Numbered from the stretch's first letter, positions 5,478 through 49,138 are shown. The stretch is 64,000 nt of DNA from a virus (IMGVR_UViG_3300028370_000004:1-64000), one strand, 5' to 3'. Notes: a model not told the origin generated them from the letters alone. Translations and numbers: made by a program.

Positions 5478-6488
5478 TTAGTGTCCTATACGAATATTTA
5501 TTCTCAAATATCCAAACTTCGTAGTCATACCCTCTGTCTACAACAGCTTGGCGTTTTTTAAGGTTGTTAACCAATCTATTCTTATACTTTTCCTTGCCAT
5601 GGCCGTTCCACCACCATTGACTCTTGACTCTTGACTCTTGACTTCGATAATTTTATTTTCTTTAGGAATGAAGATATCGGGGTAATATTTTAAGTGATGT
5701 CTATTTTCAGCAACGTACTTAAATACCTCGATAGCGTAGTCTGAATAATCGTCGTGTATAATTATGTCATCTTCGCTGTATTTCAGCTGGTTAAATAATA
5801 TATCCAAAGCAAAAGGTTCATGACCGCGTACACCTACAACCTTGCCGCCTGGCATTGTATAGTCTTTTATTGTACAGTTGCCTTTGTTGATCTTGCTAGC
5901 TGTTGTTCCTGACAATAGTACGTTTTCGACACCGTATCTTTCTAAGTTAGTAGCCCGCCTTTGTTGGTTGCTCTTATTCTTTTCTTCAATAGAACGGTTT
6001 ACTCTACTTAAACTAGCCTGCTTGCTGTTGTTGTATTTTTCGTCGCCATATTTTACTAGCTTGGTCTGTCTTGACTTTTCTTTTTGGCTCTCCAACTTTG
6101 ATCCCCACGCAACTCCGTACTTCTTTTTAAACGTAGCTTGCGCTTTGTTAAGTTGTTTTTCTTTTTGTGCATCTGTTCGCAATGCTGCTGCCTTCTTTTT
6201 GTTAGCGGAATCAATTTGTTTTTTGGTTGCAGTCCACTGTGACTTTGTAGTCGACCCACTTACTCCTACGCACTTAGGATCCCCGCAACTGTTGGCATAA
6301 GTTTCTTTGTGTTGATAAAATGAAAGTTTCTCTCCGCATATACACCTAGGACTTGTTCCAGTTGTATACTTTTCGTAGTAATCTCGATACGTTAAGTTAT
6401 GTGTTTTTAAATGTCGCGTGAATTGACCATTGGTTTTGCAGTATGTCTTATTATCTAATCTTGATTCGACGTAAATTGCGACGCTCAC
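5461..6488 (-). pseudogene. Free-standing PD-(D/E)XK-type endonuclease splitting intein 2; frameshifted by a 14-bp repeat expansion
   Basis: KYG repeats and YYPDIFIPKENKIIEVKS; removing two TTGACTC copies restores ...EVKSQWWWNGHGKEKYKNRLVNNLKKRQAVVDRGYDYEVWIFENK...DF* ending at 5461; GGAG RBS before GTG 6488. Confidence 0.75.
5617..5643. repeat. 7-bp tandem repeat (TTGACTC)x3 + TTGACT
   Basis: Read directly from the sequence. Confidence 0.95.
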
Positions 6489-44694: not shown

Positions 44695-45069
44695 TTATAT
44701 TGCAGTCAGAACTAGAATATTAGATGTTGAATCGTCTTGAACTTCCCAAGTATAACGGTTGTTGTCAAAATCGATCATGGTTCTGTTATGAAATTTGCGT
44801 ATGTTGACACCGTCGCCGTTGCCGCCGATGTATCCCTTGACAACCATTTCGTTGTCAGATGGAATGTCTTTGTCAACTAGAACACACGAACCGGAATTGC
44901 CGTCGCCGCCTGCTAGATCATTAACTCTAAATTTGGTTTCTGATCTTTGTGAAAGAATTATTCCGGTTAGTGTAACGTCGTTTGTTCCGATCTTAACCGT
45001 TGCTGGAATTGTTCCATCGTCGGCATCATTTGTAGTACCAAGATATTGTTTGTTAATTGGACGTCCCAT
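44695..45069 (-). CDS. Hypothetical protein
   Basis: MGRPINK..; AGGAG RBS. Confidence 0.75.
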   Translation of the reverse strand: MGRPINKQYLGTTNDADDGTIPATVKIGTNDVTLTGIILSQRSETKFRVNDLAGGDGNSGSCVLVDKDIPSDNEMVVKGYIGGNGDGVNIRKFHNRTMIDFDNNRYTWEVQDDSTSNILVLTAI

Positions 45070-45090
45070 TTGTTTCTCCTATGTTGACGT

Positions 45091-45141
45091 TCTAGGTCTA
45101 CGCGGAGGGTATCCGCATAAGTCTGCTTGCGCAGCACTAGA
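45091..45141 (-). promoter_or_regulatory. Structured 5' leader (three-way junction) after the late promoter GATAAATA (45148-45155)
   Basis: UCUAG/CUAGA closing stem; CUGC-GCAA-GCAG; UAUGCGGA-UACCC-UCCGCGUA. Confidence 0.55.
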
Positions 45142-45180
45142 CACTTATATTTATCAAAAGAACAGAATAGGTAGTCAAGG

Positions 45181-45211
45181 AAAAAGACTAGTCCGAATCG
45201 GACTAGTCTTT
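45181..45211 (-). terminator. Intrinsic terminator
   Basis: AAAGACTAGTCCGA-A-TCGGACTAGTCTTT hairpin with T-tract on the minus strand. Confidence 0.85.
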
Positions 45212-45218
45212 AATAAGA

Positions 45219-45493
45219 CAGAGAAGAAAAAGTATTAAAAACTGGCTGATCAAAGTGCATACAGTATACGGTTCGCTAGGCGCACCCACTGTGGCAAAAG
45301 TCAAAAAGCAAAAAGCATAAGGATCCTATTTCCAGCCAGCAATATGCAGGCACAGTTAAGGCTAATAAGTGGCTGGGACACAATCTTGCTATGATCAAAC
45401 GATCTTAATTGAAAGTGTATGACCTCATACATGGTACCGGTCTTCTTTTATCTTTCTCCTCTGGGTAATTTACGCTTTCAACGCATAATCACC
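45219..45493 (-). ncRNA. Candidate ~275-nt structured RNA downstream of the 193-aa coiled-coil gene
   Basis: No ORF; closing stem 45451-45463 / 45219-45231; internal stem 45370-45376 / 45332-45338; 5' hairpin 45464-45493. Confidence 0.5.
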
Positions 45494-45500
45494 AAACTGT

Positions 45501-46082
45501 TTACAGGATACCAGCTGCTGTAAGTGCTGGTACACTGTCTGCGTCAACTTCAATTTGAGTCTTCACATTTAATTCAAGAAGTGTATCTTGTAACAAGAGC
45601 TTTCTCTTTTTCATTTCAGCAGCCTTCTTGCGGAATTCATCAATTTCAGCTACTTCGAAGATCGAAGTAGCAACTTCGTCTTCATTAGCGCTTGCAAAGC
45701 GGTAAGTATCGGCTGAGCCAGATTCTCTGCTTCTAATCTTGCCAAGCTTGCCGCGCATAACTTCTGCAGCAACACAAGGCTTTGATTTTGACAAACGTGT
45801 CATGTGCCCAATTTGTTTTTCAAGCAATGCTACCTCTGTAAGTATATCGTTAATACCTACAGCGGCGTTTGCTCTAGCAACATTGCGTCGGATATCATAT
45901 AATGCTGCAAGCATTACTTCGCGTGTTTCTGAATTCTCAGTGAATACAATTCTTGCCGCTGCAATTTTTTCATTTGGCTTTTCAAATTCATTAACACTAA
46001 CATTTGTGTCAAGATCCAAAGCAGTAATTGCTTCATTGATTGCTGCTTGTACAGCGTTTGCCTTGCGTAGTGTAATTTTCAT
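45501..46082 (-). CDS. Coiled-coil protein, possibly DIP1984/DUF6847-like
   Basis: MKITLRKA..IRRNVARAN..LQDTLLELNVKTQIEV pattern; has its own promoter-like region. Confidence 0.55.
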   Translation of the reverse strand: MKITLRKANAVQAAINEAITALDLDTNVSVNEFEKPNEKIAAARIVFTENSETREVMLAALYDIRRNVARANAAVGINDILTEVALLEKQIGHMTRLSKSKPCVAAEVMRGKLGKIRSRESGSADTYRFASANEDEVATSIFEVAEIDEFRKKAAEMKKRKLLLQDTLLELNVKTQIEVDADSVPALTAAGIL

Positions 46083-46229
46083 GTGCCTATGTCTTCCTTG
46101 TTGTTATGTATTTAATATAACATCACATGCAGCAAAGGTCGACCTCTTTAACACTTAACCAAGAGAAATATATTTTTAAATTATGTCTAATTATTTTTAT
46201 AAATTTTATTTAATGTAGTTAAGATTAAT

Positions 46230-46309: not shown

Positions 46310-47896
46310 ATGAAACTTCAATTACAACAATTAATTAACCAATATCCAAAACACTATACTAGAATGATTAAAAAAGATACTAATATTAACAAATTTGTAG
46401 AAACATTTATTGGAAATACAATTGCAGAAAAAGCATATAATGCATTACACAATCCTATAACACAATGTCCTCATGGCCAGCAATATAAATTTAAAGGAAT
46501 AACCCAGGGATACTCCTTTTGTGGCAGGGCAAATGCGTGTAAATGTGCTAGAGAAAGTGTTTCTCTAGCAGTGTCTAATACTAAGAAAAAGTTTACCGAA
46601 GAGAAAAAACAACAAATACAATCAAAAAAAATTAATAGCTTAAATAAAAAATACAATGTCAACAACGCAGGAAAATTAAAACATGCTATACAAAATCATG
46701 CAGACTTTTATAATAATTCCGATAACGTAAATACAGTTGTATCAAAAGTACAACAAACAAAACTTATCAAATACGGAAATTCTAATTACAATAATCCTGA
46801 AAAAATTAAACAGACTTTTAAAGAAAAGGATACTGTTTTTTGGCAACAGCGATTTCCTGAAAAAGATATTTCAACATTACATGATAAATTGGCATTAAAA
46901 AAAATGTTTGAAACTATACCCATTACTGACATTGCAACAACACTTGGCGTTCATATACAAACCGTTTATCAGTACCTCAATAAGCATAAAATTAAAAGTC
47001 CTTACCAGAGCTCGTATGAGCAAGAAATAGTATTGTTTTTGCAGAGTTTAGGAATTACAAACATAATACGCAACACACGGAAACTGTTACCTAGCGGCAA
47101 GGAAATTGATATTTATTTGCCGGACTACCGTTTAGCAATTGAATTTAACGGAATTTATTGGCACCACGAAGATATAAGTCACATCACTCGGTCTTATCAC
47201 AAAAACAAGTTTATAGAAGCCGAGTATTTAGGAATACAGCTAATTACTATCTTTTCAAACTTTTGGAACACGCGCAAAGATATTGTAAAACAATCTTTAA
47301 TAAATAAACTAGGCTTAGATACTCAATCGATTTATGCCAGACAAACAGTAGTCAGACTGATATCTGCAAAACATACAACAGAGTTTTTAAATAAAAATCA
47401 TATACAAGGATACACGCCGGCTTCGGTATGCTACGGATTATTTGATCATAACGATATATTAGTTGCTGTAATGACGTTCTCGCGTTCACGCATTGCACTA
47501 GGCAAGCAAACTCGGGGATTTGAATTAGTAAGATATGCTAGTGCGTTACGGGTAGTTGGAGGCGCAGGAAAATTATTAGCAGCATTTTGTAAAGAATATC
47601 CTGATCAAGCAGTGTATTCTTACAGCAACAACGAATGGAGCAACGGCAGTTTGTATAAAACACTTGGGTTTGATTTAGAAAGAGACATTGATGTTAGCTA
47701 TTGGTATATTCATCCAAGAGAAGAAAAACTAATGCACCGGTTTAATTTTTCAAAACAAAAGTTAATTAAAAAAGGATACGATAAATTAAAAACAGAAAAA
47801 GAAATATGCAAAGAAATTGGGTTACTTAAAGTGTGGGATTGCGGCAAGCGGCGATGGATGTTAGAATCTAGTAATTCACGAAAATCAGGGTTATAA
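46310..47896 (+). CDS. Free-standing homing endonuclease (Vsr/DUF559-like + GNAT-like C-terminus), paralogue of 13580..15160
   Basis: EIDIYLP..AIEFNGIYWH; NHIQG..ELVRYA..WDCG; antisense, downstream of the capsid gene. Confidence 0.8.
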   Translation: MKLQLQQLINQYPKHYTRMIKKDTNINKFVETFIGNTIAEKAYNALHNPITQCPHGQQYKFKGITQGYSFCGRANACKCARESVSLAVSNTKKKFTEEKKQQIQSKKINSLNKKYNVNNAGKLKHAIQNHADFYNNSDNVNTVVSKVQQTKLIKYGNSNYNNPEKIKQTFKEKDTVFWQQRFPEKDISTLHDKLALKKMFETIPITDIATTLGVHIQTVYQYLNKHKIKSPYQSSYEQEIVLFLQSLGITNIIRNTRKLLPSGKEIDIYLPDYRLAIEFNGIYWHHEDISHITRSYHKNKFIEAEYLGIQLITIFSNFWNTRKDIVKQSLINKLGLDTQSIYARQTVVRLISAKHTTEFLNKNHIQGYTPASVCYGLFDHNDILVAVMTFSRSRIALGKQTRGFELVRYASALRVVGGAGKLLAAFCKEYPDQAVYSYSNNEWSNGSLYKTLGFDLERDIDVSYWYIHPREEKLMHRFNFSKQKLIKKGYDKLKTEKEICKEIGLLKVWDCGKRRWMLESSNSRKSGL

Positions 47897-47956: not shown

Positions 47957-49138
47957 TTAGCTAAAGCTAAGATTACCAGTGTTGACTCCAACAACACCCA
48001 GGTAGTCAGCTGCGTTACCAAGTGATGACGCAGTGTTAGTTAGTTCTACATAACCATACCGTGTCATAAAGCTAACCACTGGCTCGAATGTTTGTGGATC
48101 AAGCACAACGCCGGAACTCATTAGTGGAATGTATGGGCAATAGAAGGCCGCTGCATCTGATTCACTTGTTCCTTTGTAGCCAATGATCACATCATCTGAA
48201 GTTGCATATGTGTTGACATATACTTTCATTGCGTTGTTAAGAGTACCGACCATTTTAGTGTTGGTTGGTGCTTCAAATGTGCCTTCGGTAGTACGAGCAA
48301 ATGCCGAAGTAGTTGCTGACTGTAGAAGTGTAAGAACAGTTGGGGAAACAACTGCCCAGTTACCTGCACCGCGACGAGTACGCTGAGCGATTAGGTTTGA
48401 TACTCTGTTGATCTGAACAGCTAGTGCAGCATGCTCGTCACCGACAAAGGTAGCAGTACCGGATACTGCTGCTTGATCGTAAGTTTCTACAGCAGAACCA
48501 GCTAGTGAGCGCAGGCTGCGTAGTACTTCTTGATCAATTTCAGCAGTAATTTCTTGTGCAAGAGCAGCCATGATTTCTGCTTCTACGTCGATGCCATGCA
48601 TCGCTTGTGCGTCTTGTGCAGCTTCAAAAGTCCAACGTGCTGATAGCTTACGTGATTTAGCTTCAACAGTCTGCTTGAGGATCTGGATAGACATCCTGTT
48701 ACCAGCAACGCCTTCGAGCGCCGCAGTATTTGCCGGACGACCATTGCCAGTGCCAATGTTACCTGAGTAACCTTCAGCAATCTTGAATGGACTTAGGGCT
48801 TCTTCACCAGCTGTTACGTTTCCGCCGACACCGTCAGTGAAGCCGTCACTGTAACGCACACGTAGAGTGTGAATCTGCGATACTGGTCCCTGCATTGGCT
48901 GTACACCAACAAGCTCGTTTGCAATAACAGTAGGCATAACACGTCTAATCACTGGAAGGATTACACGGTGTAGTGTTGCGATATTACCAGCAGAAGTGGC
49001 ACCGGCAGTTGCACTTTCTGAAAGATACTTACGAGTATTTTCCAGTGTAACATTCATTACTGCTTTTTTGTTGCCTGCAAGGCCTTCAAGAAGGGCACCC
49101 TTGGTCTCCTGCCATCTACTTTCTAATAGTTCTGACAT
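47957..49138 (-). CDS. Major capsid protein (gp23-like)
   Basis: GVQPMQGP; VEAKSRKL; EITAEID; FYCPYIPL; TRYG. Confidence 0.97.
   Translation of the reverse strand: MSELLESRWQETKGALLEGLAGNKKAVMNVTLENTRKYLSESATAGATSAGNIATLHRVILPVIRRVMPTVIANELVGVQPMQGPVSQIHTLRVRYSDGFTDGVGGNVTAGEEALSPFKIAEGYSGNIGTGNGRPANTAALEGVAGNRMSIQILKQTVEAKSRKLSARWTFEAAQDAQAMHGIDVEAEIMAALAQEITAEIDQEVLRSLRSLAGSAVETYDQAAVSGTATFVGDEHAALAVQINRVSNLIAQRTRRGAGNWAVVSPTVLTLLQSATTSAFARTTEGTFEAPTNTKMVGTLNNAMKVYVNTYATSDDVIIGYKGTSESDAAAFYCPYIPLMSSGVVLDPQTFEPVVSFMTRYGYVELTNTASSLGNAADYLGVVGVNTGNLSFS

Follow-up and report, generated by a model that had tools for sequence, protein, structure and literature searches.

A family of structured phage RNAs with unpaired UG heptads, coupled to a neighbouring gene for a helical protein

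The window analysed here is a stretch of 64,000 nucleotides (nt) (IMGVR_UViG_3300028370_000004:1-64000) from a 151-kb viral record that was recovered from lake water and belongs to a T4-like phage. On its minus strand, an open reading frame (ORF) for a helical protein of 193 amino acids (aa) is followed by a non-coding stretch of 279 nt, which we call the UG-heptad RNA, and then by a terminator. We find that this RNA is a member of an undescribed family of structured non-coding RNAs of 260-300 nt, and that it is a discrete unit which stays genetically coupled to the protein family across rearrangements and, with RNAs that are probably of the same family, in a second, unrelated phage lineage. 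We found no description of the RNA, of its pairing with the protein gene or of the function of the protein in Rfam 15, Pfam, PHROGs, NCBIfam, PADLOC or openly searchable papers. The original prediction, which was made from the sequence of the window, had proposed a coiled-coil protein gene followed by a structured RNA of ~275 nt and a perfect terminator; both the RNA, with covarying helices, and the hairpin terminator were found. The features of the locus are as follows.

45181-45213, minus strand: terminator-like hairpin of 13 bp with a U-run, which closes the transcription unit of ORF and RNA (RNAfold)
45219-45497, minus strand: the whole UG-heptad RNA, 279 nt, reaching from the GUUU ahead of hairpin P1 to where the closing helix P2 ends (nhmmer profile)
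45219-45246, minus strand: pyrimidine-rich 3' strand of the long closing helix P2 (same pairs as the 5' strand)
45251-45317, minus strand: UG-heptad array, comprising box 2, P8 and box 3 (UG and UUG columns invariant in 53 sequences)
45322-45385, minus strand: P5/P6 arm, with GAU.../...AUC and CCAGC/GCUGG stems (P5 90% and P6 95% paired; 9 of 11 pairs changed on both sides)
45393-45430, minus strand: two hairpins of variable sequence, P4 (45393-45404) and P3 (45417-45430) (per-sequence folding, in nearly all of 53 relatives)
45436-45463, minus strand: purine-rich 5' strand of P2 (22 pairs in two segments, 21 changed on both sides)
45464-45493, minus strand: P1, a 5' hairpin that lies outside P2 and is extended at its apex, GGUGAUU...AAUUACC (7 pairs, 96% paired, 6 changed on both sides)
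45501-46082, minus strand: gene for the 193-aa all-helical protein, the obligate neighbour of the RNA (ORF call, homologues, AlphaFold2 model)
46114-46142, minus strand: weak sigma-70-like match upstream of the ORF, TCGACC, 17 nt, TATATT, with TG (9/12; a lead only)

The RNA region folds to -95.9 kcal/mol on the minus strand (z -4.4), as opposed to -84.1 kcal/mol on the plus strand. The 13-bp closing stem noticed in the original prediction, CAGAGGAGAAAGA/UUUUUCUUCUCUG, joins 45450-45462 with 45220-45232 and includes two G-U pairs that correspond to C-A on the plus strand, as had been claimed, and the helix to which it belongs is in fact longer. The 5' hairpin lies where it had been placed, the internal CCAGCC/GGCUGG stem is present, and the repeat GCUUUUUGCUUUUUGACUUUUGC is at 45295-45317. 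As the covarying helices and the count of heptads given below show, this exceeds what chance would produce. A proposed GUGCG/UGCAC stem, however, gives way in the comparative model to a variable hairpin (45261-45292) and a conserved unpaired box (45251-45259). With an E-value of 1.3e-40 against the nhmmer profile of the RNA, the window copy has all helices and boxes and is the only one in its own 151-kb record. The Rfam search that had been recommended matched no family: Rfam 15 gave nothing over 45181-45500 at E up to 10, nothing in the whole window at gathering scores, and nothing over the homologous RNA in 26 related loci, with GOLLD, ROOL, 6S, tmRNA and Y RNA included. No ORF is conserved in 45214-45500 on the minus strand, the longest sense ORFs of 53 relatives being 11-67 aa and lying in differing places and frames, and a small protein encoded within the RNA was rejected on this ground.

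The structure rests on an alignment of 53 distinct sequences, each less than 95% alike (A5), with which the recommended covariation check on the flanks of homologues was carried out. Five helices are supported by it (P1, the two segments of P2, P5 and P6), and they covary. In these helices 89.6% of cells are paired, compared to 74.3% in column shuffles, of which 0 of 500 reach the observed value, and 36 of the 40 pairs show compensatory changes on both sides. Sliding the partners by 1-3 columns lowers the pairing to 38-50%. The column pairs with the highest mutual information are nearly all helix pairs, those of P5/P6 ranking at the top, and no extra long-range pairing emerged from the mutual-information analysis. 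The P2 duplex has an energy of -18 to -27 kcal/mol in every relative. The P5/P6 arm contains a conserved internal loop, UGUG.U / GAAAUA, and carries the first UG box, UGCAUAUUG (45340-45348), in its loop. P8, the variable hairpin at 45261-45292, is optional and was found by per-sequence folding in about three quarters of the sequences. Three further structural candidates were dropped: 3-bp mini-hairpins inside the boxes, in which changes are one-sided only; an anticodon-loop mimic in the P4 loop, which is not conserved in the window copy; and a triple helix of U-rich heptads with P2, as most relatives have no pyrimidine-rich spacers between their heptads.

The invariant nucleotides of the family do not lie in helices but are UG dinucleotides placed exactly 7 nt apart (53 sequences). 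Box 1, in the loop of the P6 arm, has two UG; box 2, after the arm (45295-45317), has four at 7-nt spacing; and box 3, UGCACUUUG (45251-45259), just ahead of the 3' strand of P2, has two. Where P8 is absent, boxes 2 and 3 fuse into an unbroken run of six UG, which is otherwise divided into four and two. The mean longest chain of UG is 4.55 at a period of 7, compared to about 2 at periods of 5, 6, 8 and 9, and Tandem Repeats Finder (TRF) reports only a 7-nt unit, in 3 copies. The boxes alternate between UGCA and UGUG independently of one another. This speaks for sites that are recognised separately and against pairing between boxes, and a model with the palindromic UGCA as the pairing element was dropped for this reason and for want of extra covarying pairs. 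The heptad pattern occurs twice in the 64-kb window against 0.16 occurrences expected. Its second match, at 5618-5640 on the plus strand, is a perfect tandem of three TGACTCT units in the split terminase region and is probably unrelated.

Repeats of this kind could also be read at the level of DNA, as iterons to which proteins bind, as an origin of replication or as a packaging site, and TTG repeats at a fixed spacing could be taken for iterons. However, the G-U pairs become A-C on the other strand, the strand of the ORF folds better, and the compensatory changes keep the pairing rather than the sequence. Additionally, the orientation is fixed relative to promoters, tRNAs and terminators, and a 7-bp period is unlike the helical repeat of DNA, so that we consider a DNA element highly improbable.

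The coupling of the RNA to the ORF was followed in a profile-guided scan of viral contigs that gave 80 loci, linkage being counted over 81 loci whose flanks were long enough. An nhmmer profile built from the sequence downstream of the ORF detects the RNA, on the same strand as the ORF, in 75 of the 81. In the remaining group, with ORFs of 39-40% identity, the sampled loci carry a diverged RNA just upstream of the ORF, detected with E-values of 1e-6 to 4e-3 by R1, a covariance model of 162 positions that represents the 3' domain of the RNA. Both contigs from metagenome-assembled genomes (MAGs), which are binned with Alteromonadales, carry ORF and RNA. A scan of 2.9 million viral contigs for the pattern of the RNA alone returned 17 matches, 16 of which are in ORF-bearing contigs, while the 17th (L087) lies inside a 654-aa coding sequence and is a chance match. 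Pattern scan, nhmmer and covariance model gave no instance of the RNA apart from the ORF. The original prediction of a protein-RNA pair therefore stands as a matter of genetic linkage, in either order, in the 81 loci, the two MAG contigs and, with RNAs that are probably of the same family, the seven cultured phages described below, whereas physical binding is something that we infer.

The arrangement of the two partners varies. Most phages have the RNA downstream of the ORF; in 8 loci and in the diverged group it is upstream, and in some loci an insertion of 27-430 nt separates the two. Whatever precedes it, the unit starts with GUUUU and P1. In most loci, the window included, the stop codon of the ORF is 1-6 nt ahead of the RNA, but the CCA end of a tRNA precedes it in L050, L069 and L056, and a TATAAT box is found 7 nt upstream of it in L041, L053, L059, L073 and L083. 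At the other end, a U-run follows the closing helix immediately in 24 of 52 relatives, and in others a separate terminator hairpin does, as in the window; most relatives have an equivalent hairpin or U-run behind the RNA. Where tRNA arrays are present, the gene order is either ORF-RNA-tRNAs or tRNAs-RNA-ORF, so the RNA keeps to the side of the ORF and not to one end of the tRNA block. In L019, L020, L022 and L023, a small ORF (MKQKPWESK...) starts ~20-30 nt after the RNA, at the place where the window has its terminator.

These arrangements bear on a simple reading in which the RNA acts in cis within the 3' untranslated part of the ORF's mRNA, as a stabiliser, attenuator or processing signal without a role of its own. 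The short distance from the stop codon in most loci, with a terminator to follow, is what such an element would show, and the original prediction had the RNA simply downstream of the gene. It is not simply the 3' region of the ORF, however, because in other phages it stands upstream of the ORF, behind a tRNA or an insertion, or under a TATAAT promoter of its own. Its size of ~280 nt, its eight helices and its invariant single-stranded boxes also far exceed the needs of a stability element, and we judge this explanation improbable.

Thus far the relatives are uncultured. Searches of cultured phages by tblastn and blastn at strict thresholds found nothing, but relaxing tblastn to E 10 brought up a 27%-identical protein in Brevundimonas phage Kikimora, and gp272 of CcrColossus matches the protein profile with an E-value of 3e-19. 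The homologue is carried by the phiCbK-like jumbo siphophages CcrColossus and CcrPW, which infect Caulobacter, and Kikimora, Gurke, Domovoi, Kabachok and Bambus, which infect Brevundimonas. In all seven, an unannotated gap of 284-314 nt comes after it in a row of genes that is densely packed elsewhere, and the gap after gp272 (JX100810, 201299-201582) is not mentioned in the phiCbK genomics paper. The gaps are GC-rich and share a layout consisting of a 5' hairpin, a purine-rich strand that pairs with a pyrimidine-rich strand at the 3' end, an inner arm, and 5-6 UG heptads ahead of the 3' strand. Among the seven phages the purine/pyrimidine helix shows compensatory changes, and the Kikimora gap folds with a z of -5.7. 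The covariance model of the lake-phage RNAs scores weakly in CcrPW (12.3 bits, E 0.28) and CcrColossus (10.8 bits, E 0.59), where these are the best scores in each locus, at full length and in the right place and strand, and it gives no match in the Brevundimonas phages. Since the scores are weak or nil, we speak of the same architecture beside a homologous gene; the two groups of RNAs probably belong to one family, though we stop short of claiming RNA homology from the sequences. In the phiCbK-like phages the pair lies among hypothetical and nucleotide-metabolism genes, with no tRNA nearby. A hypothetical gene of 81-82 aa always comes after the RNA gap in these seven phages (CcrColossus gp273, L109:2379-2624) and might be a third member of the module there.

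The 193-aa ORF is present as predicted and is modelled by AlphaFold2 as nearly all helix, with short N- and C-terminal strands and a mean predicted local distance difference test (pLDDT) score of 88.6. It has 220 close homologues in metagenomes, and a search at E up to 1e-3 through a library of representatives gave 1679 clusters of relatives at 50% identity. The original prediction had likened the protein to DIP1984/DUF6847, and this likeness probably holds at the level of the fold but was not found in the sequence. The only full-length structural neighbour, ranked first in two structure searches, is PDB entry 3kdq, an uncharacterised protein of Corynebacterium diphtheriae that represents DUF6847/DIP1984 (PF20935), a family sometimes labelled 'septicolysin'. 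Foldseek aligns the two with an E-value of 0.013 and template modelling (TM) scores of 0.43-0.45 by query and 0.53-0.55 by target. An all-against-all comparison with VIA gives a Z of 10.9 and a root-mean-square deviation of 5.8 over 141 of 152 residues, although in helical bundles a Z under ~13 may mean a common arrangement only, and the structural neighbours found by VIA are helical hairpins. In the ESM Atlas, a cluster that is partly DUF6847 was matched (feature score 0.91, TM 0.58/0.72), the DUF6847 family being phage-rich there, and BFVD shows the same fold in other large phages and in giant viruses.

In contrast, the sequence searches were negative. Pfam has no match to the window protein at E up to 0.1, PF20935 none to seven relatives at E up to 1, and PHROGs, NCBIfam (including its DIP1984 family) and PADLOC none to the 193-aa protein. 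A profile search against PDB sequences returned noise only, with DNA polymerase beta at an E-value of ~0.5 and 3kdq absent at E up to 10. The protein is also ~40 residues longer than 3kdq. In the searchable literature we found no paper that names DUF6847, and 'DIP1984' and 'septicolysin' occur there merely as annotation labels. We therefore regard the modelled relationship as a distant likeness in fold, which falls short of proof of family membership.

The protein probably forms a homodimer, as judged from its predicted complex. The model has an ipSAE interface score of 0.69 compared to 0.00 for the best control, a mark reached by 20 of 30 known homodimers and by 1 of 23 monomers. At least 98% of contacts are shared between runs, with a pLDDT of 88 or more. 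Proteins of the family are mildly acidic, with a median isoelectric point (pI) of 5.7 and a net charge of -2, and their invariant basic residues (K2, R6, K7, R151, K158, K159 and K161) lie outside the predicted dimer interface.

In its general layout, with a terminated RNA that contains repeats next to the gene for a protein, the locus resembles a type III toxin-antitoxin system such as ToxIN, and the original prediction had suggested an RNA-antitoxin-like module. According to such an explanation, the pair would serve in toxin-antitoxin function or abortive infection, the repeat RNA neutralising a toxic protein. The likeness does not go beyond that layout, as repeat length, RNA architecture and protein fold all differ. 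The repeat units are 7 nt and not 34-36 nt long, are embedded in a large fold, and are accompanied by no tandem repeats of 30-40 nt in TRF. Furthermore, the all-helical dimer has no nuclease-like fold and no match in PADLOC, and the pair is carried by lytic-type large phages of many lineages. The antitoxin idea is accordingly not supported, and we see very little chance that it is right.

Many relatives carry the pair in tRNA-rich surroundings. There are tRNA genes within 2.5 kb in 41 of 60 distinct loci, with up to 21 of them, and within 150 nt of the RNA in 13, although the window has no tRNA. In 6 of 26 loci scanned, the large phage RNA GOLLD (RF02032, 198-214 bits) is found on the same strand within 2.5 kb of the pair. 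These GOLLD copies (L043:3798-4259, L013:617-1081, L052:2968-3430, L057:4725-5186, L065:4699-5165 and L081:3946-4409) each have an embedded tRNA and lie in tRNA-rich islands of T4-like viral contigs. In L032, L018 and L050, the ORF, here of 187 aa, is the only sizeable protein gene among ~21 tRNA genes in 5.5 kb. The original prediction saw the unit as inserted among structural genes. This is true of the window, but in relatives the pair is found in tRNA/GOLLD islands or has metabolic and hypothetical genes around it, and given its neighbours in the phiCbK-like phages the structural setting is incidental.

GOLLD and ROOL are likewise phage-borne, intricately folded RNAs in or beside tRNA arrays. 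Unlike them, the UG-heptad RNA is ~280 nt long as opposed to 400-800 nt, gives no match with their covariance models, and has a single-stranded UG tract and an obligate neighbouring protein gene; we know of no such obligate gene for GOLLD or ROOL. In the main rival to the reading preferred below, which is possible if less likely, the UG-heptad RNA would act in their manner and as RNA only: a stand-alone stable RNA of tRNA islands which assembles with itself or serves as a sponge for a host RNA-binding factor that recognises the UG heptads, while the neighbouring protein does not bind it and is only co-regulated or belongs to the same pathway. The frequency of tRNAs and GOLLD near the pair fits this explanation, as do phages in which the RNA stands behind a tRNA and ends at a terminator of its own while the ORF has its own promoter, and so does an acidic protein in which no RNA-binding domain is recognised. 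Complexes of RNA only are formed by GOLLD, ROOL and OLE, according to a preprint (bioRxiv 10.1101/2024.12.08.627333). However, a stand-alone RNA would not be expected to occur only with the ORF and to follow the ORF's side when the tRNA block switches, nor would the pair be expected to persist without nearby tRNA, as it does in the window and in the Caulobacter and Brevundimonas phages.

As about 90 large phages, uncultured and cultured, have the RNA and the protein gene next to each other, the two partners probably work together. Our preferred reading, held tentatively and with slightly less than even confidence, is a ribonucleoprotein module in which the UG heptads are docking sites for dimers of the protein. 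In the phage of the window, the RNA would be transcribed behind the ORF and end at the terminator. It would fold by itself into a stable scaffold, with P2 enclosing P3, P4, the P5/P6 arm and the single-stranded UG tract. The heptads, six in the tract and two in the arm, may then act as a multivalent strip on which dimers of the neighbouring protein land. With protein and RNA made beside each other on one transcript, loading could take place in cis and yield a defined ribonucleoprotein. Since the pair occurs in the tRNA/GOLLD islands of many relatives and appears to have moved between unrelated phage lineages, we would expect it to serve as an accessory in the handling of RNA or the takeover of the host and not as a part of the virion. 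In these proposals binding, stoichiometry and biological role go beyond the comparative results.

The docking of dimers on the heptads would have parallels elsewhere. HutP, which acts on hut mRNA, and TRAP, which acts on the trp leader, are oligomeric proteins that read short triplets at fixed spacing, and the UAG sites of HutP with their 4-nt spacers give a period of 7. Their RNAs and the UG-heptad RNA have in common a short invariant motif that is unpaired and repeated at a small fixed period. The analogy is one of mechanism only: the 193-aa helical dimer is unrelated to these proteins, with no match in Pfam, and the UG-heptad RNA is a large stand-alone fold and not a terminator-switching leader.

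Several points weigh against the docking model. An acidic protein family that shows no recognisable RNA-binding domain in Pfam, PHROGs or NCBIfam is unusual for an RNA binder. The stretch is present only in lake-water DNA runs, with no RNA run among those listed. The adjacency could come from shared regulation or a shared pathway instead of binding, and the UG heptads could serve a host protein or RNA-RNA contacts. Finally, the link from the lake-phage RNA to that of the Caulobacter and Brevundimonas phages rests on layout, motifs and the homologous neighbouring gene.

T4 itself encodes stable RNAs, rnaC and rnaD (species 1 and 2), which are co-located with tRNA genes. They are 119-139 nt long with tRNA-like 3' parts and, on inspection by eye, lack UG heptads, a closing purine/pyrimidine helix and a partner gene, and no likeness to the UG-heptad RNA was seen.

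Large structured RNAs of unassigned function are rare and have repeatedly led to new biology. The UG-heptad RNA has unusually strong comparative support, together with a periodic motif and an obligate protein partner that most orphan RNAs lack. The partner protein is a direct experimental handle, and the presence of the same layout in cultured phages of Caulobacter crescentus and Brevundimonas makes the hypothesis testable at the bench. A bolder form of the docking model, which we put forward as a doubtful possibility, is a new class of phage ribonucleoprotein, in which a 7-nt UG 'ruler' would arrange DUF6847-like dimers in defined number within a mobile module acting on the RNA metabolism of host or phage. 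Such a module might, for example, protect or manage the phage tRNA pool or blunt an RNA-targeting host defence. If true, the new class would give the virus-rich domain DUF6847 its first function and its first RNA partner. The sharing of islands with GOLLD and tRNA arrays may also help to explain the purpose of such islands.

In the window, the ORF and the RNA are situated between the gene for the major capsid protein Gp23 (47957-49138, minus strand; Pfam E 2.7e-101) and a row of minus-strand genes of structural type. A homing-endonuclease gene of 528 aa on the opposite strand (46310-47896, plus strand; PHROG 3339, E 1e-104) separates gp23 from the ORF, whereas in relatives such as L002 gp23 leads directly to the ORF at a distance of ~100 nt. 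A promoter-like region had been predicted ahead of the ORF, but the sigma-70-like match found there scores 9/12, not above what shuffled sequence is expected to give, and this part of the original prediction was not upheld. The T4-type late promoter ATAAATA is found in 0 of 59 distinct regions upstream of the ORF.

Beyond the terminator, a full-length match to the freshwater-2 RNA family (RF02980) lies at 45067-45138 on the minus strand with 49.4 bits (E 3.9e-6), 0.5 bit below the cut-off of 49.9. It forms the 5' leader of the next gene (44695-45069), which encodes 124 aa and is without a family. A sequence resembling a T4 late promoter, GATAAATA, is located at 45148-45155 on the minus strand, ~10 nt upstream of this leader. 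The freshwater-2 element is found in the same place in L002 (55.3 bits) and L007 (54.3 bits), in both cases above the cut-off. As the same arrangement of promoter and leader exceeds the cut-off in these two relatives, it suggests that freshwater-2 is a leader of late transcripts in T4-like lake phages.

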